Shown in pieces: positions 5,995 to 34,197 of a stretch of 47,939 nt of DNA. This stretch comes from a virus (Duplodnaviria > Heunggongvirae > Uroviricota > Caudoviricetes), in IMG/VR virus record IMGVR_UViG_2802429228_000006; one strand, written 5' to 3'. The notes under the pieces are model-generated. The model made no database searches and had not been told where the DNA came from. It was given only the letters and a program-made list of their open reading frames with translations. The translations under genes were made by a program, and so were the position numbers. Each line of letters begins with the position of its first letter. Position 1 is the stretch's first letter.

Positions 5995-6002
5995 GATGGC
6001 AG

Positions 6003-6997: not shown

Positions 6998-7076
6998 TAA
7001 AATATAAAAAAAACAAACAGTAAGCCGGTTTTTCCTGCGACCTTTTCCTGGCTTGCCGGTCTGAGGATGAGTCTCC

Positions 7077-7094: not shown

Positions 7095-7166
7095 TCTGCA
7101 ATGCGTCGTGTTGTTGTCCGGTGTACGTCACAATTTTCTTAACCTGAAGTGACGAGGAGCCGGAAA

Positions 7167-8398: not shown

Positions 8399-8471
8399 GG
8401 GCTGCCGGTTAATACCGGCCGTCGCCGCACACCGTATTTTTATTCTTCAGCATGATGAGAAAGAGATAACG

Positions 8472-9044
8472 ATGGAAAGCACAGCCTTACAGCAGGCCTT
8501 TGACACCTGTCAGAATAACAAAGCAGCATGGCTGCAACGCAAAAATGAGCTGGCTGCGGCCGAACAGGAATATCTGCGGCTTCTGTCCGGGGAAGGCAGA
8601 AACGTCAGTCGCCTGGACGAATTACGCAATATTATCGAAGTCAGAAAATGGCAGGTGAATCAGGCCGCCGGTCGTTATATTCGTTCGCATGAAGCCGTTC
8701 AGCACATCAGCATCCGCGACCGGCTGAATGATTTTATGCAGCAGCACGGCACAGCACTGGCGGCGGCACTGGCACCGGAGCTGATGGGCTACAGTGAGCT
8801 GACGGCCATTGCCCGAAACTGTGCCATACAGCGTGCCACAGATGCCCTGCGTGAAGCCCTTCTGTCCTGGCTTGCGAAGGGGGAAAAAATTAATTATTCC
8901 GCACAGGATAGCGACATTTTAACGGCCATCGGATTCAGGCCTGACGCGGCTTCGGTGGATGACAGCCGTGAAAAATTCACTCCTGCGCAGAACATGATTT
9001 TTTCGCGTAAAAGTGCGCAACTGGCATCACATCAGTCTGTGTAA
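8472..9044 (+). CDS. psu: Psu, polarity suppression protein (Rho antagonist / capsid decoration)
   Basis: 190 aa; the MESTALQQAFDTCQNNKAAWLQRKNELAAAEQEYLRL N-terminus is recognisable as P4 Psu. Confidence 0.9.
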   Translation: MESTALQQAFDTCQNNKAAWLQRKNELAAAEQEYLRLLSGEGRNVSRLDELRNIIEVRKWQVNQAAGRYIRSHEAVQHISIRDRLNDFMQQHGTALAAALAPELMGYSELTAIARNCAIQRATDALREALLSWLAKGEKINYSAQDSDILTAIGFRPDAASVDDSREKFTPAQNMIFSRKSAQLASHQSV

Positions 9045-9080
9045 AACTCCCCGAAAATCCGCCCGTTTTTACTGAAAAAA

Positions 9081-9119
9081 GCCATGCATCGATAAGGTGC
9101 ATGGCTTTGCATGCGTTTT
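9081..9119 (+). terminator. Hairpin plus T-rich tract downstream of psu
   Basis: gccatgcatcgataaggtgcatggc followed by tttgcatgcgtttt. Confidence 0.45.
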
Positions 9120-9208
9120 CCTGCCTCATTTTCTGCAAACCACGCCATTCCCGGCGCGGTCTGAGCGTGTCAGTGCAACTGCATTAAAACCGCCCCGCAA
9201 AGCGGGCG

Positions 9209-9227
9209 GGCGAGGCGGGGAAAGCAC
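9209..9227. other. cos site, P2/P4 type (19-nt cohesive-end sequence)
   Basis: ggcgaggcggggaaagcac matches the P2/P4 cohesive end as I recall it, in the P4 position just past psu. Confidence 0.7.
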
Positions 9228-9315
9228 TGCGCGCGCATTGAATTAATTTATTAATAATTAAACTAGAATATGGAGTGGAGAAGTAAGAAACTTATAACAC
9301 TAAGGATAAGAGGAT

Positions 9316-11403
9316 ATGGGCAAAATGCAAAAAACTGAGGTCGAAGTATTTTCTGAGTTGGAGTCACTGTGTACATCTCATGGTTTTATTCATTGTTTAG
9401 CATTATTAAGCTGCATAAATAATATTACTATCTATGAAGACAAACTTAATTTTAAAGATGTGCAACATCTATACGAAAAAGAACGATTGATAAGAACCGA
9501 GATTTCTACGGTTGCAGGATTGTTGTTAAAGTCTGAAATTAATGTAAATTATCCCGGCGAAGAAGCACTGTTGAAATTATACGAAGATGTGAATGCATCT
9601 TTGAATATTTTACATAGTGCTATGCTTTTGACTGAGAAGAATGGCGATTACAACAATGCGATTATAAAAGAGAGTATATTTTATGCTGCTGAATCTGCTT
9701 ATGACTTTCAATATTTAGATATGGCGGAGGAAAAATACTCCTTAGATAATTCTTGGTTTTTAGAGAATATGGGGTTTACATGCATCGATATGGTGTCAGT
9801 AGGCCGGTGTATAGAGTCTATAATAGGGAGGCAAATTAATGATTTTTTAAATGGTGGTCAAGGGATTTTTAATGAGTGGCTATTAAATGCTTACGAGTTG
9901 TCAATTAATGAAATAGTTACTGAGACAGGTATTTCTTATGTGAAGGTAAGAACTATCATTGATTTGTTTTCGTCAGGTGGAAATTCAAATGAAACCTTTC
10001 AGTCTGTGAGTGACTTTAATATCTTTAATGCTAGACCCATAATCCGCACTGGAGATAGGTATTATTGTTTTTCAGCCTATTCATTGGCTCAGTCAATATA
10101 TGAAACACCATTTTTTTGGATGAATAATGACAAAAAATATAGACCTATATCTGCACAACATAGAGGACAATTTGTAGAAGATTATGTATATAGAAAAATG
10201 ACATCGATTTTTGGAATTGAGAATGTATTCAAAAATGTATATATAGTGAACTCTAATAATGAGACGCTAGGTGAAATAGATGTACTGGTATCTTTTTCTG
10301 ATTCGGTAATAATTTATCAGGCAAAATCTAAGAAGTTAACTATTGAAGCTAGAAAGGGAAATGGGAATGCTATACAAAAAGATTTTCAAGGTGCTATACA
10401 AGATGCTTATGATCAGGGGGTTTCTTGTGCTCAATTCATCGTATCTGGCGCAAGCCTAACTGATCAAAATTTCAACCGATTGAATCTCAACTCTTCAGTC
10501 TCTAGATGTTATATTGTTCCAATTATATCTGAGCATTATCCGTCTTTGAGTTTTCAGGTTCGTCAGTATTTGAATGTTAAAATAACAAATGAAATTTACC
10601 CGCCATTTATAATGGATGTTTTCCTTTTAGATGTTCTAACAGAGTTTTTAAATACGCCGCTATATTTTTTATCTTACATTGATCGTCGTTCGAAATATAA
10701 CATGAGAGTATTTTCTTCTCATGAATTGACAGTCTTTTCTTTGCATCTAAAACAGAATCTATGGATTGACAATGAATGTGATATGTTTATGTTGCATGAT
10801 GATATATGTGCTGATCTCGATATTGCGATGTTAGTCCGCAGGAAGGGGATCTCTGGTAAACATACTCCAAGTGGTATTCTAACACTCCATCAGGATGGCT
10901 TTATTAGAAAAATAATTAACTCATTGGAATCGGAAAATCATAAATTGGCGATGGATTTAGGTTTGCTTTTGCTTTCTTTGGATAGTGATGCTATTGAAAA
11001 CATCAATAAAATAGCTAATAAAACGATATTTTTATCTTCACTTGATAAGAAACACCATGATTTTTCAACTGTCATTGGGGATACGGGTATTACAGTTCAT
11101 TGTAATTACTATAAGAAAGATGTCGCGGGAAAAAAGTTGTATGAACATTGCATAAAAAGAAAATATATAACTAAATGTAAAAAATGGATTGGTATACATG
11201 TTAGACCAATAACATATGATATAAATTATGGAATTATGTTGGATTTTGAATGGGAATATTCTTCTGATATTGAAAGTATTATCACTCCTACTCCATTACA
11301 AAATACTTTGGTTAATGTTAAGGGAAATATGACTCAAGCAAAACGACCGGGTAGAAATGAACCATGTTTTTGTGGTAGCGGTAAAAAATGTTGTTTACGT
11401 TAA
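9316..11403 (+). CDS. Cargo protein (695 aa): putative PD-(D/E)xK/NERD-like nuclease with C-terminal SEC-C-type Cys motif; candidate anti-phage factor
   Basis: AT-rich ORF between cos and int. GEIDVLVSFSDSVIIYQAKSK fits a D..E.K nuclease core; the C-terminus CFCGSGKKCC fits a SEC-C metal-binding motif; no P-loop seen. Confidence 0.75.
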   Translation: MGKMQKTEVEVFSELESLCTSHGFIHCLALLSCINNITIYEDKLNFKDVQHLYEKERLIRTEISTVAGLLLKSEINVNYPGEEALLKLYEDVNASLNILHSAMLLTEKNGDYNNAIIKESIFYAAESAYDFQYLDMAEEKYSLDNSWFLENMGFTCIDMVSVGRCIESIIGRQINDFLNGGQGIFNEWLLNAYELSINEIVTETGISYVKVRTIIDLFSSGGNSNETFQSVSDFNIFNARPIIRTGDRYYCFSAYSLAQSIYETPFFWMNNDKKYRPISAQHRGQFVEDYVYRKMTSIFGIENVFKNVYIVNSNNETLGEIDVLVSFSDSVIIYQAKSKKLTIEARKGNGNAIQKDFQGAIQDAYDQGVSCAQFIVSGASLTDQNFNRLNLNSSVSRCYIVPIISEHYPSLSFQVRQYLNVKITNEIYPPFIMDVFLLDVLTEFLNTPLYFLSYIDRRSKYNMRVFSSHELTVFSLHLKQNLWIDNECDMFMLHDDICADLDIAMLVRRKGISGKHTPSGILTLHQDGFIRKIINSLESENHKLAMDLGLLLLSLDSDAIENINKIANKTIFLSSLDKKHHDFSTVIGDTGITVHCNYYKKDVAGKKLYEHCIKRKYITKCKKWIGIHVRPITYDINYGIMLDFEWEYSSDIESIITPTPLQNTLVNVKGNMTQAKRPGRNEPCFCGSGKKCCLR

Positions 11404-11410
11404 GGACAAT

Positions 11411-11429
11411 GGCGCGTTAAAAACGCGCC
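11411..11429. terminator. Bidirectional terminator between the cargo gene and int
   Basis: Perfect palindrome ggcgcgttaaaaacgcgcc flanked by T-runs. Confidence 0.5.
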
Positions 11430-11430
11430 T

Positions 11431-12624
11431 TTAGTTATTTTTTTTTACTTTGTTTCCCCACCATTCCATGAGTTCAATTCGTTGCTCTAAGTATGTAGAT
11501 CTATTGTATGCTCTCCGAACTTCATTTTTATCACTGTGAGCTAAAGCCGCTTCAATAACATCTGCATTGAAACCAGCTTCATTCATTGCAGTGCTTGCAA
11601 TAGAGCGAAGGCCATGAGCAACTAGTTTTCCGCCAAAACCAATGCGTTTTAAAGCTGCATTAGCAGTTTGGCTATTCATTGGCTGTTTAGGGTCATTTCT
11701 ACTTGGAAAAATATGTTCACGATGGGCACTAATAGGCTTCATTACTTCCAAAATATCTAAAGCCTGACGTGATAAAGGAACAATGTGTTCACGTTTGGCT
11801 TTCATCCGTTCAGGGGGAATAGTCCAGAGTTTTGTATCAAGATCGATCTCTGCCCAACAAGCACCAGAGGCTTCAGAAGGGCGTACAAGCGTCAAGAGTT
11901 GCCATTCAATGAGACAGCGAGTCGGAACAGATAGGTTTGACATAGCTAAAGAACGCATCAGCTTCGGCAATTCTTCTGGCCGCAATGTTGGCATGTTTTG
12001 CTTTTTTGGCTTCTCAAAGGCCATCCCAACCCCAGATGCTGGATTGGCATCAATCAGACCAGTGTTTACAGCGTAAATCATTATCTCGTTAATTCGCTGT
12101 ATCAGTCGACGTACAGTTTCAAGAGCCCCACGAGCTTTGATTGGCTCAAGAGCTTCGACTAGCGTCCGGGCTTTGATTTGCTGGACGGGAATCTCTCCAA
12201 TGGCTGGGAATATGTCTTTTTCCAGCGAACGCCATATATCTTTAGCGTAATCAGGGGAAACGCTTTTGCTTTTTATCTGAAACCAGTTGGTCGCAACAGT
12301 CGAAAAAATACTGTCTAGAGCTATCTGTTGTTGTTCTTCGATAAATTCAGCTTGAACTTGTGGGTCTATACCATTAGCCAACAAAGCAAGGTAATCCGCT
12401 CTTAACCGTCGAGCATCAGCAAGTGAAAGAGCGGGGAAAGCACCTATCCCCATCATTGTTCTTTTTTTTGTAGCTGGTCGTTGATAGCGAAATCGCCAAA
12501 GTTTCTTACCGCTTGTTTTCACTATCAGAAAGAGGCCTTCGCCATCATGCAACGTCAGATCCTTTTCTAATGCTTTAGCGCGCAGAACTTCTGTATTGGT
12601 TAGGGGGCGTGTTGTTCTTGCCAC
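11431..12624 (-). CDS. int: P4-type tyrosine integrase (IntA-like)
   Basis: 397-aa product with a P4/CP4-57 integrase-like sequence and a C-terminal catalytic region (HGLR..., ...AHSD...RAY). Adjacent to the att repeat. Confidence 0.9.
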   Translation of the reverse strand: MARTTRPLTNTEVLRAKALEKDLTLHDGEGLFLIVKTSGKKLWRFRYQRPATKKRTMMGIGAFPALSLADARRLRADYLALLANGIDPQVQAEFIEEQQQIALDSIFSTVATNWFQIKSKSVSPDYAKDIWRSLEKDIFPAIGEIPVQQIKARTLVEALEPIKARGALETVRRLIQRINEIMIYAVNTGLIDANPASGVGMAFEKPKKQNMPTLRPEELPKLMRSLAMSNLSVPTRCLIEWQLLTLVRPSEASGACWAEIDLDTKLWTIPPERMKAKREHIVPLSRQALDILEVMKPISAHREHIFPSRNDPKQPMNSQTANAALKRIGFGGKLVAHGLRSIASTAMNEAGFNADVIEAALAHSDKNEVRRAYNRSTYLEQRIELMEWWGNKVKKNN

Positions 12625-12645
12625 TTTGGCCGCTCCTTCATGAAT

Positions 12646-12697
12646 TGGTATACGCGTTTAGGCATATATCCTATCGTATACCTAAACGTATACCAAT
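12646..12697. promoter_or_regulatory. GTATACC box cluster between int and att (candidate integrase arm sites)
   Basis: ttggtatacg...cgtatacctaaacgtataccaat includes a 10-bp inverted repeat (ttggtatacg / cgtataccaa). The same box pair recurs at 1826..1848 at the other end of the element. Confidence 0.35.
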
Positions 12698-12737
12698 AAT
12701 CACTGGATTTAGCTGGATATCCTCGGACAACAGTAGA

Positions 12738-12773
12738 CACAAAAAAGCCCGCAGAGCTTGTGTCATGCGGGCT
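12738..12773 (-). terminator. Rho-independent terminator (minus strand) downstream of the ssrA-end copy
   Basis: Stem agcccgca/tgcgggct with a T6 run on the minus strand. Confidence 0.45.
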
Positions 12774-12808
12774 TTCAGGATTTCTCCGGACGTATCCGGA
12801 AGAGCAAG

Positions 12809-12853
12809 TGGTGGAGCTGGCGGGAGTTGAACCCGCGTCCGAAATTCCTACAT
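12809..12853 (-). repeat. 45-bp direct repeat of the ssrA 3' end (att core copy)
   Basis: tggtggagctggcgggagttgaacccgcgtccgaaattcctacat is identical to 46879..46923, the 3' end of intact ssrA, then diverges. Confidence 0.85.
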
Positions 12854-12969: not shown

Positions 12970-14193
12970 TTATTTTAAATATTCATACTTCATCATTTGA
13001 TGAATAAGGAGTTCAACTTTTCTAAAAGTGGTATTTTCATAATGTTCAACAAGGGATTCATCAAAGTCTTCAATCCATCCTTTTGCGGGATTATAGGTCG
13101 AAAAATTAAAATTATTTTTGTATAGATAGGGGGTGGCTTCTAGTGTACTAAACACAGTCCAGGAAACAGGGTTTGTAACTCTAAATATTTTTTTTAAAAC
13201 AGGACAGTGGGTATCATTGGTTTCAACTATGTTTTCTATTTTTGGGGGGATAATTACATTAATCCCAATATCGCTATCTTTTTGGTTTAATATCTTTGTT
13301 GATCGATACGATATCCCTGATATATTTTTGTTTCTGTCACTACTAATCCATTGCATTAATAGGTTTGGTATTATGTATTCTTTATTAAAACTTGCGTTTT
13401 CATTATCTTTTGTATAGTTACATGCAAGGACTAAAGGCCATGCAATCAACTTTGAAATTTTATCATTAATTTGATCCATGAAATTATCATTATTTAGATC
13501 GTAATCATCATCTGAACCTTGTTCGAATGAATACCAAAGATCTCCCGGTTTTGTACGAAGTGCAGATGTTAAATTGTACCCAAGATCTAAAATTCTTATA
13601 TTTGAATTTTCTTTATCGGATATGAAGGAAGATATGTAAAGTTTATCAAAGTCAGGTTTTCCCATTTCTTGCCAACATACAAATATTGATGTTCCAAGAT
13701 ATAAACATGGAAGACCGGATACAGAAAATCTTTGTGCGCTAACTAAATGTCTATTTTTAAATGGTATATGAAATAATTCTTCTCTTTGTTTTAGGATGCA
13801 CTCACTTTTCCTTACGCGAAATAAAGGGGTGTGTGGGTTGCATAATTTAGTTAGAGGAACAGTCATCTTATAAAGATGAGTATGCATTGATGACTTGGTA
13901 ATTGCCAAATCGAATTTTTTATAAGCTTCTTTAACATTTCCTATTAAAAATAGCTTAAGAGTTTCTATTATTTTATCAGATAAATATATTATTGATTTTG
14001 TGCGAATCTTTACTTGTTTAATTATCTCGTTGTCAGGATATTTATTTCTAATGGAGTCAATTAATTCTAAATAGCACTCGACTCTCTTAGAAAAGTCAGA
14101 AATTAGTTTTCCCTCGGCAATGAATGGGGGTTGCAATAGTTCATGTTTTTTTAGTTCTTCCGATATCTGTTCTAATTCGATAATGTTGCGCAT
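12970..14193 (-). CDS. RES-domain protein (407 aa), candidate NAD-targeting toxin / abortive-infection effector
   Basis: AT-rich ORF between att and int. LFRVR...QRFSVSGLPCLYLGTSIFVCWQE matches the RES signature (R...GRWN..G.P.LY......E). No adjacent partner gene. Confidence 0.6.
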   Translation of the reverse strand: MRNIIELEQISEELKKHELLQPPFIAEGKLISDFSKRVECYLELIDSIRNKYPDNEIIKQVKIRTKSIIYLSDKIIETLKLFLIGNVKEAYKKFDLAITKSSMHTHLYKMTVPLTKLCNPHTPLFRVRKSECILKQREELFHIPFKNRHLVSAQRFSVSGLPCLYLGTSIFVCWQEMGKPDFDKLYISSFISDKENSNIRILDLGYNLTSALRTKPGDLWYSFEQGSDDDYDLNNDNFMDQINDKISKLIAWPLVLACNYTKDNENASFNKEYIIPNLLMQWISSDRNKNISGISYRSTKILNQKDSDIGINVIIPPKIENIVETNDTHCPVLKKIFRVTNPVSWTVFSTLEATPYLYKNNFNFSTYNPAKGWIEDFDESLVEHYENTTFRKVELLIHQMMKYEYLK

Positions 14194-14197: not shown

Positions 14198-15217
14198 TTA
14201 ATCCATCAAGGTTGCTAATGGGTTTTTAGTTACTGCATCTTCAAGATGATCTGGGGAAAAATGAGCGTAAATCATCGTCATTTTTATATCGGCATGTCCA
14301 AGAATATCGCGCAGTACCAGTATATTTCCACCGTTCATCATAAAATGACTGGCAAATGTATGGCGCAGAACATGGGTACATTGGCCTTCTGGTAGTTCTA
14401 AACCGGCTCGCTTTACTGCACGCTCAAAGGCTTTTCTGCATGGGGTGAATAACTTCCCCCTATTCTTAGGCAGTTCTTCATATAAATCCTTAGAAATAGG
14501 CACAGTTCGGTTTTTCTTGCCTTTGGTCTTGGTATAAGTGATACGGTATTTTGATACCTGATGACTCTGCAGGTTTTCGGCTTCGCTCCAGCGTGCGCCG
14601 GTGGCCAGGCATATTTTTGCAATCAAAAGCAGGCTGGAGCTTTGAGAATCGGCGCAGGCATCCAGCAGACGTTTAATTTCTTCCGGGGTCAGGAACGCCA
14701 ATTCACTCTCAGCAATTTTAAATGTTGGCAGCCCAGCAAGCGGGTTGGGGGCTGACCAGTGGCCCAGCTTTTTCAGTGTACCAAAAACAGATGATAGATT
14801 GCGCTGTTCAAGGTTTACCGTGCGGGGCTTAACGGGCGACATAAACGTGCCATCTTCATTTCGTACTTCACCTTTTAACCGTGCTTCGCGGTATTTCGTA
14901 AAGTCACCGGCTGTCAGTTCTGAAGCGATGGGATCGCCTAGACCATTACAGATAATTCTAAGTTTCGCTATGAGGCGCTTGGGGTCTGCGAGTGTTTGAC
15001 CATACAGGGAATACCACTGCTCAATTAATTCTGATAGGTGTCGCCGATCTTCCTTTTCCCCCAGCCATGGTTTTTTGTTCACTTCTTCCATTGTGAAGCT
15101 TTCAAAAGCAATGGCTTCGCCTTTCGTAGCAAATTGCTTACGCACGCGCTTGCCATTGCGTCCATTGGGATAGCACTCGCACAACCATTTACCGTTTGGC
15201 TGTTTTCTGACAGTCAT
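14198..15217 (-). CDS. int: P2/186-family tyrosine integrase
   Basis: 339 aa with a C-terminal catalytic region (ARWSEA..., HVLRHTFAS, ...MTMIYAH); position next to the repressor. Confidence 0.9.
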   Translation of the reverse strand: MTVRKQPNGKWLCECYPNGRNGKRVRKQFATKGEAIAFESFTMEEVNKKPWLGEKEDRRHLSELIEQWYSLYGQTLADPKRLIAKLRIICNGLGDPIASELTAGDFTKYREARLKGEVRNEDGTFMSPVKPRTVNLEQRNLSSVFGTLKKLGHWSAPNPLAGLPTFKIAESELAFLTPEEIKRLLDACADSQSSSLLLIAKICLATGARWSEAENLQSHQVSKYRITYTKTKGKKNRTVPISKDLYEELPKNRGKLFTPCRKAFERAVKRAGLELPEGQCTHVLRHTFASHFMMNGGNILVLRDILGHADIKMTMIYAHFSPDHLEDAVTKNPLATLMD

Positions 15218-15219: not shown

Positions 15220-15852
15220 TTAGATACTCTTTATTACTTTGACTGCACGCCCAATAACTTCCACATCATCGGCAGAGCACTCGAAAGACGCTTCATCTTG
15301 ATTTACTACAATCTTATTGCCGGGAATCCGCATGATTTTTGCAATAATAATCATTCCATCAATATTGATAAGCCAGAATCCATTGCTGACTTGTTTAACT
15401 GATTTATCGATGAGATAACAATCAGTAGGGGTTTCTAAGAACATCGATTCTTCATAATCTGCAGGTAATATGCTGTGGTCTAGGAAAATCTCTTCATCAA
15501 TACTGAGTTGTCCATTTTCCAAGGTTCCTTTAGGAATAGATGGAGTTATGAGTTTGGATAACGGTTTAATTGCTTGTTTGTTCTCGTTATGAGATCTTTT
15601 CTCAGACTCGTATCCTTCTTTCATGCTTCCCTGTCCAGTGGCTAACCAAAGTAACGAAACACCGGTTTCTAGTGCACACTGAATTATCCAGTCAGCAGGA
15701 AAACTGTCACGTAACACTCTGTTTGCCATAGTACTTTTTGAGACATTCAGGTGCTCGCTTAATGCCTGCTTAGTTGTGAATCCATAAGCCTCAAGCAGCC
15801 TCTCAATAGCTGCCTTACCTCCCGTATCGGAACCCATTCTGATGTTTAACAT
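15220..15852 (-). CDS. cI: 186-type CI immunity repressor
   Basis: 210 aa with an N-terminal HTH; divergent from an Apl-like gene across an operator-bearing intergenic region; GGAG RBS. Confidence 0.7.
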   Translation of the reverse strand: MLNIRMGSDTGGKAAIERLLEAYGFTTKQALSEHLNVSKSTMANRVLRDSFPADWIIQCALETGVSLLWLATGQGSMKEGYESEKRSHNENKQAIKPLSKLITPSIPKGTLENGQLSIDEEIFLDHSILPADYEESMFLETPTDCYLIDKSVKQVSNGFWLINIDGMIIIAKIMRIPGNKIVVNQDEASFECSADDVEVIGRAVKVIKSI

Positions 15853-18049: not shown

Positions 18050-18903
18050 GCACCATCCTGAAATGGGCGGGAAATAAAACCGCCATTATGTCCGAACTGA
18101 AAAAACATCTTCCTGCTGGCTCGCGACTGGTTGAACCTTTCGCGGGTTCCTGTGCTGTGATGATGGAGACGGATTACCCCAGCTATCTTGTTGCGGATAT
18201 TAATCCTGATTTAATCAACCTCTATAAAAAGGTTGCTGCTGATTGCGAGGCGTTTATATCTCGTGCCAGAGCTTTATTTGAGGAAGCAAACAGGGATGTG
18301 GCTTATTACAACATAAGGCAGGAGTTTAATTACTCCATTGAAATTACTGATTTCATGAAAGCGGTATATTTCCTGTATCTCAATCGTCATGGTTACCGTG
18401 GGTTATGTCGCTATAACAAGAGCGGGCATTTCAACATTCCGTACGGTAATTATAAAAATCCGTATTTCCCTGAAAAAGAAATTCGCGCATTTGCAGAGAA
18501 AGCCCAGCGGGCAACGTTTATATGCGCCAGCTTTGATGAAACGCTGGCGATGTTGAAGGCGGGGGATGTGGTGTATTGCGATCCGCCTTATGACGGTACG
18601 TTTTCCGACTATCACACTGACGGCTTCACTGAAGATGACCAGTATCACCTGGCATCCCTTCTTGAACATCGGTCATCAGAAGGACATCCGGTCATTGTTT
18701 CTAACAGTGACACATCCCTGATCCGTTCGCTGTATCGCAATTTTACTCACCACTACATCAAGGCAAAACGCAGCATCGGCGTAGCAGCTGGTGAGAGTAA
18801 ATCTGCAACAGAAATCATCGCTGTTTCCGGGACACGCTGCTGGGTGGGATTTGATTATTCGCGTGGCGTGGATAGTTCAGCCGTGTACGGAGTACGTGCA
18901 TGA
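18046..18903 (+). CDS. dam: DNA adenine methyltransferase (Dam-like, N6-MTase)
   Basis: KWAGNK...FAGS motif I and DPPY motif IV; ATG at 18046 with a GGAGG RBS. The track start at 17986 is an upstream extension overlapping the previous gene. Confidence 0.85.
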
Positions 18904-21314
18904 GTCATGCCGATATGAACAACTGCTGCGGCTTTAACGAGGCTGCCGCAGCGTTCTCATGGAACAGCCCGAAAAAGGCCATTAACCCTTATCTGGACCC
19001 GGCGGAAGTCGCGCCGGTTTCTGCGCTTTCAAACCTGATCACTCTGTACGCTGCCGATAACGAGCAGGAACAGCTGCGCCGCGAGGCACTGAGTGATCAG
19101 GCCTGGGAGCGTTATTTCTTTAATGAATCCCGTGATCCTGTCCAACGCGAAATGGAGCAGGATAAGCTCATTAGCCGGGCAAAGCTGGCGCATGAGCAGC
19201 AGCGTTTTAATCCAGACATGGTCATTCTGGCGGACGTTAACGCCCAGCCTTCCCATATCAGCAAGCCGCTGATGCAACGTATTGAATACTTCAGCAGCCT
19301 GGGCAGGCCAAAGGCTTATTCCCGCTATTTGCGTGAGACGATTAAGCCATGTCTGGAACGACTGGAGCATGTACGCGACTGTCAGCTATCCACTTCTTTT
19401 CGCTTTATGGCAAGCCATGAAGGGCTGGACGGCCTGCTGATCCTGCCTGAAATGAGTCAGGATCAGGTGAAGCGCCTGTCTACCCTTGTCGCCGCGCATA
19501 TGAGCATGTGCCTTGATGCAGCTTGTGGTGATTTGTATGCCACCGATGACATTAAGCCAGAAGAAATCCGCAAAACATGGGAAAAGGTGGCAGCGGAAAC
19601 CCTGCGTCTGGATGTTATCCCGCCTGCGTTTGAGCAACTCCGTCGGAAAAGAAACCGCCGTAAACCCGTGCCTTATGAACTCATTCCGGGTTCGCTGGCG
19701 CGTATGTTATGCGCCGACTGGTGGTATCGGAAATTATGGAAGATGCGTTGCGAATGGCGGGAAGAGCAGTTGCGTGCTGTTTGCCTGGTCAGCAAAAAAG
19801 CATCTCCCTATGTCAGCTATGAAGCCGTGATGCATAAACGTGAGCAGCGCCGTAAGTCGCTGGAGTTTTTCCGTTCTCATGAACTGGTGAACGAAGACGG
19901 CGACACGCTGGATATGGAAGACGTGGTAAACGCCAGCAGCAGCAACCCTGCGCATCGCCGCAATGAGATGATGGCCTGTGTTAAAGGTCTGGAGCTTATC
20001 GCGGAAATGCGCGGTGACTGCGCCGTTTTCTACACCATCACCTGTCCGTCACGTTTCCATTCCACGCTAAATAACGGCAGGCCCAACCCGACCTGGACAA
20101 ATGCGACGGTAAGACAAAGCAGTGATTATCTGGTCGGTATGTTTGCTGCATTTCGTAAGGCGATGCACAAAGCCGGATTACGCTGGTATGGCGTGCGGGT
20201 GGCTGAGCCGCATCATGACGGTACAGTTCACTGGCACCTGTTGTGTTTTATGCGCAAAAAAGATCGCCGCGCCATTACTGCTTTGTTGCGTAAGTTTGCC
20301 ATTCGTGAAGACCGCGAGGAGCTGGGTAATAACACGGAACCACGCTTTAAGTCTGAGCTGATAAACCCGCGCAAAGGTACGCCAACAAGCTACATCGCGA
20401 AATACATCAGTAAGAACATTGACGGGCGTGGTCTGGCTGGCGAGATCAGCAAGGAAACGGGTAAATCCCTGCGTGATAACGCTGAATACGTTAATGCCTG
20501 GGCGTCTCTGCATCGTGTTCAGCAATTCCGCTTCTTTGGCATTCCGGGGCGTCAGGCTTACCGTGAACTGCGATTGCTGGCTGGTCAGGCGGCAAGGCAA
20601 CAGGGGGACAAAAAAGCAGGTGCGCCGGTACTGGATAACCCGCGCCTTGATGCCATCCTAGCCGCTGCTGATGCTGGTTGTTTTGCCACCTACATCATGA
20701 AGCAGGGCGGCGTACTGGTTCCCCGCAAATATCACCTCATCAGAACCGCTTATGAAATCAACGAAGAGCCGACCGCCTATGGCGATCACGGTATTCGTAT
20801 TTATGGCATCTGGTCACCCATTGCAGAGGGCAAGATCTGCACTCATGCGGTGAAGTGGAAAATGGTTCGTAAGGCCGTTGACATTCAGGAGGCGGCAGCC
20901 GACCAGGGCGCTTGCGCCCCTTGGACTCGTGGCAATAACTGTCCCCTTGCTGAAAATTTGAACCAACAGGAGAAAGATAAATCAGCTGATGGGGACCCCA
21001 GAACGGACATTACCAGCATGGATGACAAGGAGTTGCACGATTACCTGCACAGTATGAGCAAAAAAGAGCGCCGGGAACTGGCAGCAAGGTTACGCCTGGT
21101 GAAACCGAAACGGCGTAAAGACTACAAACAGCGAATTACAGACCATCAGCGACTGCAGCTCGTGTATGAGCTGAAGTCCAGAGGATTTGATGGCAGCGAG
21201 AAAGAGGTCGATTTACTCCTTCGCGGAGGCAGTATTCCGTCAGGAGCAGGCCTGCGTATCTTCTATCGGAACCAGCGTTTGCAGGAAGATGATCAGTGGC
21301 GGAACCTGTATTAA
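18900..21314 (+). CDS. A: Replication initiation endonuclease (P2 gene A family, rolling-circle initiator)
   Basis: 804-aa product of the size and position of P2/186 gene A, following the early operon. Confidence 0.85.
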
Positions 21315-21467: not shown

Positions 21468-21656
21468 ATGCAGGACTATTTTTTGGAGTCTTTGAAGCTC
21501 CAGCGCATTGATTTTTTTCTTAAGCTTGTAGCGGCTAGTGAGTGTAGTGATGAAGAGAAGGGGCTGGCTCTGCAGTGGGTTTCTGAATTGACTGATGAAC
21601 TCATGGCAAAAATCAGAACCCACGAATACAACCGCTCAATGGATGTCATCAGCTGA
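21468..21656 (+). CDS. Small SOS-controlled protein (62 aa), possible Tum-like antirepressor
   Basis: AGGAGG RBS and ATG directly downstream of the LexA box; function inferred from context only. Confidence 0.45.
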   Translation: MQDYFLESLKLQRIDFFLKLVAASECSDEEKGLALQWVSELTDELMAKIRTHEYNRSMDVIS

Positions 21657-21666
21657 GGTGACTTTT

Positions 21667-21900
21667 ATGCGCATTGAAATAATGATCGATAAAGAGCAGA
21701 AGATTAGCCAGTCTACCCTGGACGTCCTTGAATCCGAGCTTTACCGCAATCTGCGCCCCCTGTATCCCAAAACGGTAATTCGCATTCGCAAAGGTAGCTC
21801 TAACGGTGTGGAACTAACCGGACTGCAACTGGACGAAGAAAGAAAACAAGTGATGAAAATTATGCAGAAGGTGTGGGAAGACGACAGCTGGCTGCATTAA
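21667..21900 (+). CDS. DinI-family protein
   Basis: 77 aa starting MRIEIMIDKEQ... and ending ...WEDDSWLH, resembling the DinI fold; GAGGTG RBS. Co-transcribed with the upstream small ORF. Confidence 0.65.
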   Translation: MRIEIMIDKEQKISQSTLDVLESELYRNLRPLYPKTVIRIRKGSSNGVELTGLQLDEERKQVMKIMQKVWEDDSWLH

Positions 21901-22035
21901 GAAACGTTGCTGGCGTCTGAACTTGCTTCTGGCGTCAGCAAGGTTGAACAACGAGCCCTTGCGAGGCGTTAGCTCTGTAGTGCATGTCTATGCCGCATGA
22001 GATCGCATGATCGTTTGAGGATCGTTTTTGCTAAG

Positions 22036-22059
22036 GCCCGCCAGAACTGGCGGGCTTTT
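22036..22059 (+). terminator. Rho-independent terminator after the SOS operon
   Basis: gcccgccagaactggcgggc followed by tttt. Confidence 0.55.
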
Positions 22060-22104
22060 GCGTAGATCATGCAGGTGCATGAAAACCACTACATAAAGCG
22101 GGCA

Positions 22105-22123
22105 GGCGTGGCGGGGATACGAG
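22105..22123. other. Candidate cos site of the P2/186-like prophage
   Basis: ggcgtggcggggatacgag shares its first 13 nt with the 186 cohesive end as I recall it (GGCGTGGCGGGGA...). Confidence 0.35.
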
Positions 22124-22221
22124 CGCGCGTATTTGGTCGTTACTTAGCTTTTTTTTATCAATAGATTAAGCTAACTTAAGTCTTTTTAGGAAAAAATATT
22201 TTTTCGTGATGAGGTAGAAAG

Positions 22222-23631
22222 ATGTCTTTTCTTGATATAAAAAAAATGAGTAAAGAGAGGTTTAATGCTTTTGTTGATTGGACCAGAATGCCAAATACTG
22301 AACTTTTAGGCTATGAGTTTGAGTGGTACTGTAGTCCGAGAGAGTTCCTGCTAGGGGCACTATTATTGGATCAAATCGATGAAGATTATAGCGGTATTGT
22401 TTTAGCAAGAGACTTAAGTGGGAGATATAGATGTATTGACCTATTTACTAGTGTTTCAGAAATGAATTCTGCACGAGCAAAACTAAAGAAATTAATGCGG
22501 AAGCATACTAAATTAAACGTAAAAGTATTTCCACAAGGTGATGAAACTTATAAAGCAATGGATTTATTCACACCTATAGTTACACCAGATAAACTTCATC
22601 ATCATTTTTCATTATTTGGTAAATATGCGAACTGGTCGCCTGCAACAGGGATAATCAAGGAAATGATGAATCATTTTGAGGATGTCGACGGGAATTTTAT
22701 AGAGCAGTTTCAGACAACAGGTTTTGATGCCCGGCTATGGGAGTTATATCTTTTCGCATATTTACGAGAGGAACACTTTTGGCTAGATAGGCAGTTTAAT
22801 GCCCCTGATTATGTGGCACGTAAGTATGGTAATACTATTTGCATTGAAGCTGTAACGGTTAATCCAACAGGGAATGATATTAATCAATCATCTGAAATGC
22901 TATCTGAACCTAAAAGTAAGGAAGAATTGCTAGAGAAAATAGAGAATTATATGCCGATTAAATTTGGAAGTTCTCTCTATTCTAAACTGAAAAAGAAAAC
23001 TCGATACTGGGATCTAGAACATGTTAAGGGGAATCCTTTAATTTTCGCAATTGCTGATTTTCATGAACCAAACTCTATGATTTGGTCCCATAGTGCACTT
23101 TGGCAGTATCTTTATGGTATTCGCTATGAGCATGTTAAATCTGAAGATGGATGTTACAGTTTAGCAACTAAGAAAATTATATCGCATCAATTTGAGAAAA
23201 AGGAAATCCCTTCAGGCTTTTTCTTCTTGGATGAGTCTGAAAATATTTCGGCCGTCCTTAGTTCTAATAGTGGTACTATATCGAAGTTTAATCGGATGGG
23301 AAAACTGGCTGGTTTTGGAAGAAGTGACCTTAGATTATTTAGGAGTGGTTACTGCCATGATCATGACCCAGAGGCATTATATCCAGCAGCATTTAGTTTT
23401 GAAGTGAAAGAAGGCGATATTACAGAAACATGGGCAGAAGGTTTAAATATGTATCATAATCCTAATGCTAAATATCCTGTAGATCCTGATTTATTTCCTT
23501 CAATAGCACATCATTTTCTTGAAAATGGAGAGGTTAAAAGTATAGTGCCTGACTTTCATCCGTATACATCTATTACCATAAATGTCTTAACTCAAAATAA
23601 TAAAAAACAAAAAATCAGAGTAGATGAGTAA
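22222..23631 (+). CDS. Cargo protein (469 aa) of unrecognised family; candidate anti-phage factor
   Basis: AT-rich ORF in the variable region between gene A and portal gene Q; no P-loop, RT or obvious nuclease motif. Confidence 0.7.
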   Translation: MSFLDIKKMSKERFNAFVDWTRMPNTELLGYEFEWYCSPREFLLGALLLDQIDEDYSGIVLARDLSGRYRCIDLFTSVSEMNSARAKLKKLMRKHTKLNVKVFPQGDETYKAMDLFTPIVTPDKLHHHFSLFGKYANWSPATGIIKEMMNHFEDVDGNFIEQFQTTGFDARLWELYLFAYLREEHFWLDRQFNAPDYVARKYGNTICIEAVTVNPTGNDINQSSEMLSEPKSKEELLEKIENYMPIKFGSSLYSKLKKKTRYWDLEHVKGNPLIFAIADFHEPNSMIWSHSALWQYLYGIRYEHVKSEDGCYSLATKKIISHQFEKKEIPSGFFFLDESENISAVLSSNSGTISKFNRMGKLAGFGRSDLRLFRSGYCHDHDPEALYPAAFSFEVKEGDITETWAEGLNMYHNPNAKYPVDPDLFPSIAHHFLENGEVKSIVPDFHPYTSITINVLTQNNKKQKIRVDE

Positions 23632-23652
23632 TTAATTAGGTTTATTCTTGTT

Positions 23653-23673
23653 AACCACCTCATAGAGGTGGTT
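23653..23673. terminator. Hairpin between the convergent cargo gene and Q
   Basis: aaccacctcatagaggtggtt, a 9-bp stem, in an AT-rich context. Confidence 0.4.
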
Positions 23674-23678
23674 ATTAA

Positions 23679-24716
23679 TTAGTCTAGGGATAGTTGATAT
23701 TCTTTGAATGTAATAATATTATTTTTTAGCCATAAATTTAATTCTTCGAAACGTTTTTGCAAAGGTATTAATTCATTACGAACAAATACCCGACTTGCCT
23801 TCTCCACATCCCCAAACCCCCCAACATTATTCGGCAAAATTCCCATCATCTGAGGCGGTACGCGGTGTGCAGCCATCATGTCGTCCCGGCTCACGTTCTT
23901 GATGTTCAGAAATTCATCTTTCGCTGCGACTTCTGACAACGGGATGATCTGAAGCCCGTCCTTTTTGCCGTTAGGCGAGTACATAAACAGGTTGCGGAAG
24001 TTGCCAGGGCCTTTGGCGCTTTTCATCGCGTTGCGGAGGTTGTTCACATCTTCCTGGTTCTGCGCGGCGTCGGTCATATACATGATGAAGCCTGCATGAC
24101 TGCCGTTAATGTAATACTTGCGGCGGAACAGCGTGGCAGACTCGTTGAGCAGGGCGGATGGAATAGCAGAAAGATAACCGGGCAGGCCGTAGATCTCCTG
24201 GTTGATGTCCGGTTCCATCAGATGAAAGATGCTGCCTTTCGTGAACTGATATGGCTGCGTGGTCATACCGTATTGCACAAACCAGTAGGTATCCAGGTCT
24301 AACCCGCGTCGGGTGTATTTTGCCAAGGCAGGTTCAAGGGCGATAACTTCACCGAAGCGGTTCGTGCGTTTCTCCAGGTAGGCGTTACCAAATACCAGAT
24401 AGTCCTGCACAAAACGCGAAAAAGCCTGCTGGCTGAGCAGCGGGTGAGGGATGTAGGTGCTGGTCAGAATGTTGCACTTTACTGCAATCGGGGAACTATG
24501 ATGAACGGCAGCGCGGAAGGTGCGCGCCAGTCCGTCAAAGCTGACGGGCGGCTCATACCAGCGGTCCATCTGTACGCATTCCACATAATCCAGCAGTTCT
24601 CGGCGGTCCAGAACAGGAACGGGATCGCCGAAGCTGAATGCTTCGGCTGTAGTTTGACTTTTAAGCTGGATCTGTTTCGTCGCCGCAGCGCGGTTCTTCT
24701 TACTCTTTCCCATCAA
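23679..24716 (-). CDS. Q: Portal protein (P2 Q homolog)
   Basis: 345-aa P2-family portal at the head of the leftward P-Q operon. Confidence 0.9.
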   Translation of the reverse strand: MMGKSKKNRAAATKQIQLKSQTTAEAFSFGDPVPVLDRRELLDYVECVQMDRWYEPPVSFDGLARTFRAAVHHSSPIAVKCNILTSTYIPHPLLSQQAFSRFVQDYLVFGNAYLEKRTNRFGEVIALEPALAKYTRRGLDLDTYWFVQYGMTTQPYQFTKGSIFHLMEPDINQEIYGLPGYLSAIPSALLNESATLFRRKYYINGSHAGFIMYMTDAAQNQEDVNNLRNAMKSAKGPGNFRNLFMYSPNGKKDGLQIIPLSEVAAKDEFLNIKNVSRDDMMAAHRVPPQMMGILPNNVGGFGDVEKASRVFVRNELIPLQKRFEELNLWLKNNIITFKEYQLSLD

Positions 24717-26479
24717 AAAATCTCCACAATATTGCTGGTATTGGCGGATTCGCCCTGCAGCGGTTCGTTAAACAGTGCGTGCATCGTTGCCCAGGCCAGA
24801 TCGGCGTGGCTGGCTTCTTCGCTGCGGCTGGCTTCATAGGTCGGGCGGTTGCCACTGGCGGTGGTGGCGCGGCGGATTGCCATAAAGGACTGCGCTATGT
24901 CGGTGTGTCCGGCGTCAAACTCCAGACGGCGGTGGCTGATAATGTCGTAGGCCTTGAGTACCAGGGCGTTTTTAACGTTGGGGTTGTAGACAAACTCCCG
25001 GACGGCAGGAAAAAACGCTTTCACGTTCTCGTAAACCCCGTGACCAACGCCGGTTGAGTCGATACCGATATAGGTCACGTTGTACTGTTCGGTCAGTTTT
25101 TTGATGGCGTCAGCCTGGGCGCGGAAGTCCATTCCGCGCCACTGGTGACGCTCAAGAATGCGGAACTTACCGCCCGGCACGGCTGGCGGCGCCACCACCA
25201 CGCATCCGGCGCTGTCGCCGTTCTGCGTACCTTTCGCCGGGTCATATCCGATCCACACTTCGCGCCAGCCAAACGGGCGCAGGGCCAGTGCATGAAAGTC
25301 GGTCCAGACTTCCCAACTGTCCACCATGCACGCCTGCAGCTCGCTGAGTGGGAACACAGACGCGAGATCGTCCACGAACTCACACATCAGCAGGTTCTGG
25401 TATTCGTCCGGGCTGTACTCCATGCGCAACTGGTCGAGGTCGAACAGGTTACAGCCGCCGCGCACCGCATCTTCCACAGTGACTATCTGGCGGTACTGCC
25501 CGTCTGCGCACAGCAGGCCGGGGGCCAGATTGCTGTGGGACAGGTCGATGTCCACCTTATCGGCTTTGTTGCGCCCTCGGTTGAACAGCGCACCGGACCA
25601 GAACGGATAAGCACTGTGTGTCAGGCTGGATGGCGTGGAAAAATAGGTTTGTCGCCATTTTTTGTGAATAGCCATACCGGAAGCCACTTTGCGCAGCTCC
25701 TGGAATTTCGGTATCCAGAAATATTCATCCAGATACAGGTTGCCGTGGTAACTCTGGGCCGTGCGGGCATTGGTGCCGAGGAAGTACAGCGTGGCCCCGT
25801 TAGGAAGCACCATCGGATCGCCTTTCAGCTCCACCTCCACTTCTTTGGCGAAGTCGATGATGTACTGCTTAAAGACGTGGGCCTGAGCCTTGCTGGCGGA
25901 AAGGAAAATCTGGTTACGCCCGGTTAGCAGGGCGTCAATCAGGGCTTCACGGGCAAAATAGAAGGTCGCGCCGATCTGGCGTGACTTCAGCAGGTTGCGG
26001 ATGCGGTTGGTTTTTCCGGCTTCCCACCAGTGGCGCTGGTAGTTGAACATGGAGGAATGGAAGATTTCTTCCAGCTTCTCAATCTGTTCATCGGTGAAAA
26101 CGTTCTTTTCCGGCTGACGGCGCGGGCCTTTGTTGCGGTTGGCGACGTTAGGGTTTAAGTCGGCTTCGTTGCCGCCATTGTTAAACTTGCCGATCCGCGC
26201 ATGGCGCTCCGACTGGCGCGCCAGCAGGTCAATCTCTTTGAAATCTTTCCCTTCTTTGTGCTCCTTCATAATGAGCTGGCAGTAGCGTGCGGCGGTGGTG
26301 AGCTGCATCTGATCCAGCGGCCCATAGTCACCCCACTTGTCGCGTTTTTTCCAGCTGTGAACGGTTGCAACTTTCTCGCCCAGCATTTCAGCAATGCGGG
26401 CTACGCGGTATCCCTGAAAGTACAGCAGCATGGCCTGCCGACGGGGATCGAGATCTGCGGGTGTCAGTGTGGTGTTCAT
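24713..26479 (-). CDS. P: Terminase large (ATPase) subunit (P2 P homolog)
   Basis: 588-aa P2-family terminase ATPase, divergent from O. Confidence 0.9.
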   Translation of the reverse strand: MNTTLTPADLDPRRQAMLLYFQGYRVARIAEMLGEKVATVHSWKKRDKWGDYGPLDQMQLTTAARYCQLIMKEHKEGKDFKEIDLLARQSERHARIGKFNNGGNEADLNPNVANRNKGPRRQPEKNVFTDEQIEKLEEIFHSSMFNYQRHWWEAGKTNRIRNLLKSRQIGATFYFAREALIDALLTGRNQIFLSASKAQAHVFKQYIIDFAKEVEVELKGDPMVLPNGATLYFLGTNARTAQSYHGNLYLDEYFWIPKFQELRKVASGMAIHKKWRQTYFSTPSSLTHSAYPFWSGALFNRGRNKADKVDIDLSHSNLAPGLLCADGQYRQIVTVEDAVRGGCNLFDLDQLRMEYSPDEYQNLLMCEFVDDLASVFPLSELQACMVDSWEVWTDFHALALRPFGWREVWIGYDPAKGTQNGDSAGCVVVAPPAVPGGKFRILERHQWRGMDFRAQADAIKKLTEQYNVTYIGIDSTGVGHGVYENVKAFFPAVREFVYNPNVKNALVLKAYDIISHRRLEFDAGHTDIAQSFMAIRRATTASGNRPTYEASRSEEASHADLAWATMHALFNEPLQGESANTSNIVEIF

Positions 26480-28533: not shown

Positions 28534-29184
28534 ATGAGCCTGAGTCCCGCACGGCAGCATCGCCTGCGCGTTCAGGCTGAACAGGCCGCCCGCGAGGGCG
28601 GCAGCGTTCGCCACGCGTCGGGCTATGACCTGATGCTGCTGCAACTGGCGGAAGACCGCCGCCGTCTCAAGGGCGTTCAGTCCACGGTCAAAAAAGCGGA
28701 AATCAAGGTGGAGCTGCTGCCGAAGTACGCCGCCTGGGCGGAGGGTGTCCTGGCTGCCGGAGGCGCTCAACAGGATGACGTGCTGATGTACGTGATGCTG
28801 TGGCGCATTGATGCCGGAGATTATGCCGGGGCGCTGGAGATCGGGCGTCACGCCCTGCGTCATGGCTGGGTGATGCCGTTAGGTAACCGCAACGTGCAGA
28901 CCGTGCTGGCAGAGGAAATGGCAGATGCAGCCCAGAGCGCAATGCTTGCCGCCACCGGCTTTGATGCCGATCTGTTGCTGAAGACCCTGGAGCTGACAGA
29001 CGGTATGGATATGCCGGACCAGTCACGGGCGCGTCTGCATAAAGCGATTGGCGCTGTCCTGAGTGAAAGAAATCCGGCGTCTGCCCTTAATCATCTCAAC
29101 CATGCGTTACAGCTCGATCCCCGCTGTGGCGTGAAAAAAGACAAACAGCAGCTAGAGCGCAGACTGCGCAATGACAGCCGCTGA
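28534..29184 (+). CDS. M: Terminase small (endonuclease) subunit (P2 M homolog)
   Basis: 216 aa, in the P2 M position. Confidence 0.85.
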   Translation: MSLSPARQHRLRVQAEQAAREGGSVRHASGYDLMLLQLAEDRRRLKGVQSTVKKAEIKVELLPKYAAWAEGVLAAGGAQQDDVLMYVMLWRIDAGDYAGALEIGRHALRHGWVMPLGNRNVQTVLAEEMADAAQSAMLAATGFDADLLLKTLELTDGMDMPDQSRARLHKAIGAVLSERNPASALNHLNHALQLDPRCGVKKDKQQLERRLRNDSR

Positions 29185-32496: not shown

Positions 32497-34197
32497 TTAT
32501 TCAAGGTGATTTGAAAGAGTAATTAATGGCTCAATCGGTTGGAACGCTTTTAAGGATGTTAATATGTTTTTAACTTCCTTTGATACGATAGATAACGGGT
32601 TGTCTGTTACAGATAAGTAGGTGGTTAAATCTTGACCTGAAACACGGATAACATGTGGTAATATCGCAGTTATAACTGGTGTCCAAAGGTCGATTAAATC
32701 ATCCAGAGAGTTATTTTTAGATAATGCTGTATCATATTTATATTTTATTTTCTTCTTGTTCAAAGGTTTATCTGTTAATTCTTCAAGTATTTCTCCGATG
32801 ACGGATATTAAAAAGAATCGAGACTTTAAATTTTGGAGGAATAATAAGTTATCCTCATCTACTTTAATTTTATTCTCTTTTGCACGGATTTGAGATTTTA
32901 CTTTTTCTATAGCTTTTGAAATAGTGTAAGCACATAAAATATGCTGGGCTTTCGAATCATGAAAGGCATTGTCATAGGCTGATTTTGTATCGAAAACGTA
33001 GTTTTTACCTCTATTGGCGCTAACATAATCCCCATGTAACGCTATCAGCGGTTGAGCAACAGACTCAATGCCAAATAAAGAACCAGTATTTTCGAAGCCG
33101 CGTTTCAGTGAATATGTATAACCAAGAGTGGAAAATTCTTCTGCCACCTGTTTTTGTTCTGTGCTGTTAGAGTAGTGATCCCAGGTTGTAATATGATTCT
33201 GAGTATTATTATACTGGACTATTTTTTTTACTTTGTCCGCATCATTACATTCAATAACCTTACAAAGGACTTTTAGGCCATCTAATTTTTGTATATCTTG
33301 AACTGAACCAATAGAACCAGTGGTTTGAGCTCCATTTATGATTGAAACTCCTTCCAACAACCCTTTTTCTTTGTTGAATTTTGTTGTTAGGATTGATACA
33401 CCATTGTTAAAGACAAAGAAGTCTTTTGGGGATGTTTCTGCGGTATTCTTAATTGATGAGTTTATTTTTCTTCTCTTATTTAATCCCATGAACCCCCTAT
33501 AATTAGCAGAAAATAATTCTGCTCCATAATTTTTGTATAAATAATTTAGCCAAGTGCCGTTTGCAAAGCCAACATGTGAAGTCCAGCCATCACCTTGTAC
33601 AGAATTTATAAGTTCGCCATTGAACTTTATATTGTCAGTCACAACAATTTGTTGTGATAGCGCAATATACAATTTTTCAAGACTATTAACACCAAGTTCT
33701 CTGTAAGTTACCTCAATTTCTTTGTCTGCAAATCTACCTGCTAGATAGTCACGACAAGTTTCAAGCTCAGTTTTAACCTGCTCAGATTCGGCACAATTAT
33801 GGATATATAATAATTCAACAGCTTCAATTTCGTTATCATCAATTAATTTTCTAACCTCAGAAATTTTTGCTCTTAATTTTGCATTTGGAGACTCTCCTGA
33901 GCCTGCCATAATCCACGCTAAAGCAGTGTTTAAGTCAGAAGCTTTATTTGCAGGCGCAACTATTTTAAGTGCTTGCTGATTGCAGTAGTAACCCTGAGCA
34001 ATAAATAACGTTGAATTAATTACGGTAATGAAGTCTATTTTCTTATCGTTTCCACCATCAGTAAGTCCATCAGATGCTAGCTTATCAAAATCGGATTCAT
34101 CTAAGTAAAGACCTAATGACCATAAAAGATGTGCGTTACTAGTCCCGTACTTTTCTAACAGGGAAGTTTTATTTTGCAGTTGTCTTAAGTGTTCCAT
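32497..34197 (-). CDS. AIPR-type (abortive infection phage resistance) protein, 566 aa
   Basis: AT-rich ORF antisense to the tail genes; the conserved block ...GVSIINGAQTTGS... resembles the AIPR family. Confidence 0.65.
   Translation of the reverse strand: MEHLRQLQNKTSLLEKYGTSNAHLLWSLGLYLDESDFDKLASDGLTDGGNDKKIDFITVINSTLFIAQGYYCNQQALKIVAPANKASDLNTALAWIMAGSGESPNAKLRAKISEVRKLIDDNEIEAVELLYIHNCAESEQVKTELETCRDYLAGRFADKEIEVTYRELGVNSLEKLYIALSQQIVVTDNIKFNGELINSVQGDGWTSHVGFANGTWLNYLYKNYGAELFSANYRGFMGLNKRRKINSSIKNTAETSPKDFFVFNNGVSILTTKFNKEKGLLEGVSIINGAQTTGSIGSVQDIQKLDGLKVLCKVIECNDADKVKKIVQYNNTQNHITTWDHYSNSTEQKQVAEEFSTLGYTYSLKRGFENTGSLFGIESVAQPLIALHGDYVSANRGKNYVFDTKSAYDNAFHDSKAQHILCAYTISKAIEKVKSQIRAKENKIKVDEDNLLFLQNLKSRFFLISVIGEILEELTDKPLNKKKIKYKYDTALSKNNSLDDLIDLWTPVITAILPHVIRVSGQDLTTYLSVTDNPLSIVSKEVKNILTSLKAFQPIEPLITLSNHLE

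Follow-up and report, generated by a model that had tools for sequence, protein, structure and literature searches.

Two questions are raised by the 19-nucleotide motif at 22105-22123: whether it marks the cos site of a P2-like prophage, and whether it is unusual that a cargo gene lies between such a site and the portal gene. The initial annotation of the window (the whole stretch of 47,939 nucleotides analysed here) had read a string that shares its 13 leading nucleotides with the cohesive end of phage 186 but differs at the 3' end, and had placed a 469-aa open reading frame between this motif and the portal gene; both observations are accurate (Table 1). Comparison with related phages suggests that 22105-22123 is very probably the cos of a Fels-2-type P2-like prophage of about 34 kb at E. 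coli ssrA, with a PD-T7-1 cassette adjoining it. The order of cos, defence gene and portal is already known and has been so for long, and since it is the usual layout of the Fels-2-type lineage, the finding is correct but ordinary.

The cohesive end of 186 is GGCGTGGCGGGGAAAGCAT (NC_001317, positions 1-19, annotated cos), and 22105-22123 matches it without a break over positions 1-13 and at 15/19 positions overall, compared with 14/19 for the P2 19-mer. The last six bases are TACGAG in the window and AAGCAT in 186. The exact 13-mer GGCGWGGCGGGGA has two occurrences in the window, at 9209 and 22105, where simple arithmetic gives about 0.003 random exact matches in 2 x 48 kb; the match to the 186 cohesive end is confirmed as far beyond chance. 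The segment also starts with GGCG(A/T)GGCGGGG at the cohesive-end position, as is characteristic of the P2 family. Over its full length, it agrees in every base with the cos annotated in Salmonella phage SEN8 (KT630647.2, 1-19), published as ggcgtggcggggatacgag (PMC5427200), and it recurs with the same flanks in Fels-2, Cartapus (annotated 'putative cos'), vB_EcoM-813R9 and the retron-Ec86 prophage of E. coli B. The annotations in SEN8 and Cartapus were made by similarity, and the records of SEN8 and EtG are linearised exactly between the equivalents of positions 22104 and 22105. Because SEN8 has the same 19-mer as its annotated cos and relatives have kept it, the divergent 3' end is, by these comparisons, a lineage-specific variant, neither decay nor a degenerate 186 cos. 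The flanks align with those of the mapped cos sites of P2 and 186 and with those of P4 as well, and the reading of the motif as cos, put forward conditionally in the initial annotation, is thus well supported at the level of sequence.

Table 1. Features of the window that bear on the cos site, the cargo cassette and the two integrated elements
Feature	Position	Strand	Details
csiD	1-1083		
Satellite alpha primase	2265-4598		
Satellite delta	7898-8398		
Satellite psu	8472-9044		Pfam Psu 8.2e-89
Separate cos, outside the prophage	9209-9227	+	exact P2/P4 19-mer GGCGAGGCGGGGAAAGCAC; 19/19 to P2, 17/19 to 186
Satellite P4-type integrase	11431-12624		
ssrA 3' end, 45-bp copy	12809-12853		
P2-like prophage	att repeats 12809-12853 and 46879-46923		att-to-att 34,025 bp; ssrA site
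Prophage integrase	14198-15217		
Prophage CI	15220-15852		
gpA replication gene	18900-21314		ORF intact, 804 aa
DinI/Tum-like gene, last conserved gene before cos	21595-21900	+	Pfam DinI 9.5e-22
Conserved upstream part of cos region, presumed terminase recognition side	21980-22075	+	homology, GCAT motifs, hairpin
55-bp cos core (29 bp upstream + 19-mer + 7 bp)	22076-22130	+	matches P2/P4 shared core of Ziermann & Calendar
Predicted 19-nt cohesive-end segment (cos cut region), Fels-2-type P2-like prophage	22105-22123	+	GGCGTGGCGGGGATACGAG, also written ggcgtggcggggatacgag
Variable cargo cassette, 1,624 bp	22130-23753	+	homology break, GC
469-aa cargo gene, predicted anti-phage defence gene PD-T7-1	22222-23631	+	PADLOC model
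Hairpin between convergent cargo and portal genes, cassette-borne	23652-23674	.	inverted repeat I19
Portal gene (P2 Q / 186 W homologue)	23679-24716	-	Pfam Phage_portal 4.4e-18
Terminase large subunit (gpP homologue), expected cos-cutting enzyme	24713-26479	-	Pfam Terminase_6N, Terminase_6C, Terminase_5
Terminase small subunit (gpM homologue), expected cos-recognition subunit	28534-29184	+	Pfam Phage_term_smal 2.6e-40
ssrA	46879-47241		

Alignment with the cos regions of 186 and P2, the check recommended in the initial annotation, extends the likeness to a 55-bp core (22076-22130) without gaps and with 43/55 identities to 186 and 41/55 to P2. Its frame coincides with the stretch common to P2 and the P4-like element of the window, and it fits the 55-bp core that passages of PMC5694545 and PMC9594776 credit to Ziermann & Calendar 1990. 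Common to the P2, 186 and window sites are TGCAT.AAAACC...AAAG.GGGC before the 19-mer and GCGCG after it. Homology to relatives across cos starts further upstream, at about 21976/21982, and ends at 22129. This upstream part contains GCAT motifs at offsets -123, -110, -100 and -28 from the 19-mer (21982, 21995, 22005 and 22077), which are conserved in all cos classes sampled among the matches listed and are likely terminase recognition repeats, as well as a strong hairpin at about 22030-22061 (-23.6 kcal/mol, z = -4.9).

The extent of the signal was delimited with a conservation profile of 110 unique cos regions anchored on the 19-mer, drawn from 120 IMG/VR contigs and the two sites of the window; the contigs were found with GGGCRGGCGWGGCGGGG and represent the first 120 matches listed, so that proportions among them are indicative only. 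In these 110 regions among the matches listed, positions from about -125 to +25 are strongly conserved and those from +26 onwards are at background level, with a mean consensus frequency of 0.88 for -29 to -1, 0.88 for the 19-mer, 0.92 for +19 to +25 and 0.46 for +26 to +45. The class with a 19-mer ending in ATACGAG, to which the prophage site belongs (34 sites among the matches listed), has means of 0.97, 1.00, 0.97 and 0.47 for the same intervals, and its conservation extends back to -140 at 0.78-0.87. The recognisable packaging signal is one-sided: besides the 19-mer, it takes in about 125 bp towards the replication genes but no more than 6-7 bp on the other side. A minimal P2 cos presumably also measures about 125 bp. 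The terminase binding determinants would then lie on the replication-gene side of cos, which would leave the DNA right after the core freely replaceable. Among 5,426 complete E. coli genomes, 1,249 contain 80% or more of the 141-bp cos region; in nearly all matches sampled, the similarity extends no further than the equivalent of window position 22129, and the genome annotations mark no feature at the cos region in these matches.

The surroundings of the motif are those of a P2-like prophage, with an att-to-att length inside the range of the P2 family and a region that is 99.8-99.9% identical to E. coli strains such as MS7163 and S88. The window as a whole is a piece of E. coli chromosome, and in MS7163 the two intervals compared (21950-23800 and 21990-22130) are 99.9-100% identical. 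The gene order (gpA, DinI, cos, then leftward portal and terminase) is that of the P2 family, and homologues of both gpP (63% identical to P2 gpP) and gpM are encoded by the same element as the 22105 cos. After induction, the terminase of the prophage would recognise this site on circular phage DNA, as in P2 and 186, and make two nicks 19 nt apart, and the ends of the virion DNA would then be 5'-protruding with the sequence GGCGTGGCGGGGATACGAG. On such a virion genome in linear form, PD-T7-1 would begin 99 bp in from the left end; in the prophage, the gene is flanked by the DinI-like gene and the portal gene, within the known gpA-gpQ defence hotspot.

P2 and 186 serve as the model for cleavage at 22105-22123, for the precise points of cutting and for the overhang of 19 nt. 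A literature search with this 19-mer on either strand returned only papers on SEN8, which annotate by similarity, and no virion end-mapping, and it is for this reason that we infer the staggered cut from the two model phages. The nicks might be placed differently from those of P2 and 186, so that the cohesive end would not consist of exactly these 19 bases, which we regard as quite unlikely. Four of the last six positions differ from 186, and the small terminase subunit is only 49% identical to P2 gpM, which would leave room for such a shift. However, the first 13 bases and the following GCGCG are in register with P2 and 186, and the same 55-bp frame is conserved across all classes among the matches listed. 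Variation in length does occur in the wider family, e.g. a 21-nt cosL in the phiCTX record, but in distant genera only.

It is also conceivable, but distinctly unlikely, that 22105-22123 is the orthologue of a cos that is no longer used, i.e. a relic motif in a defective prophage. Many P2-like prophages in genomes are cryptic, and the replication endonuclease is frameshifted in the near-identical prophage of E. coli S88. In the window, however, the gpA frame is intact, as are the portal gene, both terminase subunits, the integrase and CI; both att repeats are present, and isolated phages share exactly this cos core. The preferred reading of 22105-22123 as the working cos of this prophage is in line with such a complete set of genes.

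Directly behind the core, the sequence changes its character. The cassette at 22130-23753 has a GC content of 33.9% compared with 52.2% in the rest of the prophage, and it takes the place of the usual spacer between cos and portal, of the terminator of that spacer and of the ~25 codons that end the portal gene. The sequences of Cartapus, 813R9, SEN8 and Fels-2 are homologous up to 22129 and again from 23698-23764 onwards, some 75 bp into the portal gene. The 469-aa protein matches the PADLOC model of PD-T7-1 over nearly the full profile (E = 1.3e-196, residues 7-457 on profile positions 2-449 of 452), as would be expected for a system that consists of a single protein of ~450 aa, and it is predicted by this profile to be the anti-phage system PD-T7-1; Pfam and NCBIfam gave no match for it, and the identification comes from PADLOC. 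PD-T7-1 is a validated single-gene defence listed as 'Nuclease' by Vassallo et al. 2022, and the ECOR46 allele protects against T7 and T-even phages when expressed (PMC9519451). The full arrangement of cos, PD-T7-1 and portal is held by 25 genomes, relatives of PD-T7-1 in named phages are only 32-36% identical, and no homologue was found among the 120 IMG/VR contigs listed. Between cos and the start codon (22130-22221), there is no convincing match to a consensus promoter. The 47-bp gap between cargo and portal contains only the hairpin (-15.4 kcal/mol on the plus and -14.7 kcal/mol on the minus strand; z = -4.4 and -5.0), which is likely a bidirectional terminator, and no second cos, the 13-mer being confined to 9209 and 22105.

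The right edge of the swapped cassette falls inside an essential gene, given that the last ~25 portal codons (23679-23753) are AT-rich (~27% GC, within a stretch of 27-30% GC over 23500-23800) and re-coded: the C-terminus of the portal protein differs from those of all close relatives, yet keeps the pattern LQ.R..E.N.W......F..Y.L. No terminal inverted repeats or target-site duplications were found at 22130 or 23753. In combination with this homologous, re-coded portal end and the empty slots found in the same cos class, the lack of transposon ends points to P2-like phages having exchanged the cassette through recombination, probably bounded by the cos core on one side and the portal 3' end on the other. 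That the cassette arrived instead by transposition or site-specific insertion by cos is very improbable: the left junction is indeed sharp and always at the core edge, but there is neither a transposase nor an integrase in the cassette, and the right junction lies in a portal gene whose replaced part is still a homologous portal C-terminus, the signature of exchange between P2-like phages.

An AIPR-family protein of 566 aa (32497-34197, minus strand; PADLOC AbiU 1.7e-24 and a weak MzaE-like match) is encoded on the opposite strand between the tail-completion genes and baseplate gene V, at the position of orf30 in P2; the prophage thus has a second cargo of the defence type. PMC13586616 mentions a minor cargo site that corresponds to the region 12970-14193 (minus strand).

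The tin and old genes of P2 are located on the opposite side of cos, as stated in the initial annotation and seen in the P2 record. The cargo of the window does not follow this pattern, i.e. it is not located between gene A/orf91 and cos but on the portal side, and it had been called unusual for this reason. Among the IMG/VR matches listed, the slot between cos and portal is occupied in 19/22 contigs with the ATACGAG 19-mer (550-3372 bp from cos to the portal stop), compared with 3/22 contigs with the P2 19-mer, the other 19/22 of which keep about 170 bp; 186-type contigs have an empty slot in 5/8 cases. Most contigs of this cos type thus have their cargo on the portal side, as did every named relative inspected, and such a position is already in the literature for retrons Ec67/Ec86 and for ctx of phiCTX, so that it is unusual only by comparison with P2 and 186 themselves. 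Where the slot is empty in the ATACGAG class, it consists of a GC-rich spacer of 152-174 bp with the portal terminator (among the matches listed). Different genes are found between this cos and the portal gene in Fels-2, SEN8, Cartapus, 813R9, RE2010, 4LV2017, 500465-1 and several Klebsiella phages, and the repertoire includes a retron, AIPR, TIR, DUF4145, Hypoth_Ymh and Fels-2 STM2723.1. Variable content between conserved flanks (up to 22129 and from about 23754) and a cargo that is predicted, from its full-length profile match, to be an anti-phage system are both features of a defence hotspot. As conservation of cos is one-sided, the DNA directly past the core would be free to vary and may serve as the main slot for accessory genes in this lineage.

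Accessory genes also occur between DinI and cos in some relatives (Fels-2 STM2726, two Cartapus ORFs, SEN8_49 and a DUF8087 gene in E. coli B), and for this reason the gpA-gpQ hotspot really consists of two slots, one on each side of cos. In the window, the slot towards DinI is empty: only 204 bp separate the DinI-like gene from the 19-mer, a spacing of 203-204 bp that is found in many relatives, and hence the replication-gene side of cos is without cargo here. [quoted passage not shown] 2022, PMC9122126; Vassallo et al. 2022, PMC9519451). The side of the cargo relative to cos appears to be a lineage trait, with P2-type phages using the replication-gene side and Fels-2-type phages the portal side; no statement of such a split by cos lineage was found in the papers on the gpA-gpQ hotspot. 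The shared cos core might act as a common recombination anchor, or ends cut by terminase might start the recombination that moves defence cassettes, but we consider this unlikely, and purifying selection on the core explains the sharp junction at +26 equally well. If true, it would mean that cassettes move among phages and satellites and that the gene in question lies at the very end of the injected DNA. No cassette was common to P4-like and P2-like slots among the 120 contigs listed, a sample too small for this to mean much.

A better match to cos, which the initial annotation had named as evidence against its own reading, does exist in the window, but it does not refute this reading since it is the own cos of a neighbouring P4-like satellite (1100-12853). 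This satellite sits in tandem with the prophage at ssrA, and the 45-bp copy of the ssrA 3' end separates the two. The satellite core (9180-9234) has 53/55 identities to P2 in the same frame of 29 + 19 + 7 bp, compared with 41/55 to the prophage core and five differences in the 19-mer. Its GCAT motifs (9086, 9099, 9109 and 9181) have the same offsets as those at the 22105 cos. The 19-mers of P4-like contigs end in AGAGCAT, AAAGCAC or CTACGAG and in none of them in ATACGAG (among the matches listed). That 9209-9227 is the working cos of the prophage and the 22105 motif a decayed duplicate has a virtually negligible probability, as the site at 9209, albeit closer to both P2 and 186 than the one at 22105, lies outside the att repeats of the prophage and follows psu by 164 bp, in an element that also has delta, an alpha primase and a P4-type integrase and with the same spacing as in P4-like contigs (among the matches listed), while the 22105 motif is kept base for base in many phages of the lineage. 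An AT-rich ORF of 695 aa (9316-11403, plus strand) follows the satellite cos in the P4 hotspot; it matches no Pfam or PADLOC family, its only signal is a weak C-terminal SEC-C/SWIM-like motif (residues 664-693), and it is a candidate for an uncharacterised defence gene.

Little of this is new biology, and its value is practical. The position of cos is fixed for a prophage type that about 23% of complete E. coli genomes carry and whose cos site genome annotation does not mark, and the gpA-gpQ hotspot is resolved into two sub-slots divided by cos. Judging from the conservation profile, the packaging signal would need almost nothing on the portal side, which might be useful for delimiting cassettes and for building P2-family cosmids and transducing particles. 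Mildly new, and descriptive only, is that the cargo side tracks the cos/terminase lineage and that the Fels-2-type layout mirrors that of P4 satellites.

The closest known systems are phages of the SEN8 / Fels-2 / RE-2010 group (Felsduovirus, Elveevirus), which share the 19-mer, the upstream region, CGCGCG after it and accessory genes between cos and portal. They differ from the window in their cargo, with two genes in SEN8 (one a putative HNH endonuclease) and STM2723.1 in Fels-2 in place of PD-T7-1, and Fels-2, SEN8 and Cartapus have extra genes on the DinI side that the window is lacking. Phage 186 (and PSP3) resembles the prophage in the 19-nt cohesive end, its first 13 bases and the order of A, tum/DinI, cos, portal and terminase, but 186 has 176 bp with the terminator tW between cos and portal gene W, and its accessory orf97 is located on the opposite side. 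P2 belongs to the same cos family and shares the gpA-to-gpQ hotspot in the definition of Rousset et al. 2022 (PMC9122126), whereas its tin and old (the 'TO' region) are situated between A/orf91 and cos, at the right end of the virion DNA, and its cos-to-Q spacer of 167 bp is empty.

The same slot has been used by other elements. In a 186-related prophage, retrons Ec67/Ec86 occupy the place of the DNA from cos to a terminator (Dodd & Egan 1996, as related in PMC5694545), and the interval from cosL to gpQ is suggested as a hotspot in P2-like phages in a passage of the same paper that cites Dodd & Egan 1996 and Nakayama 1999. We could retrace both cases: in the E. coli B retron prophage, the identical 19-mer is followed by the retron effector and reverse transcriptase and then the portal gene, and the record of phiCTX has cosL, then ctx and then Q. 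Apart from the different cargo, the replacement in the window also reaches about 75 bp into the portal gene. The P4-satellite defence hotspot by cos (Rousset et al. 2022, PMC9122126) is similar in that AT-rich cargo follows the cos core at once, as is the case in the window itself with 9209-9234 and the 695-aa ORF, but there the far flank is an integrase instead of the portal gene and the 19-mer is of the P2 type.
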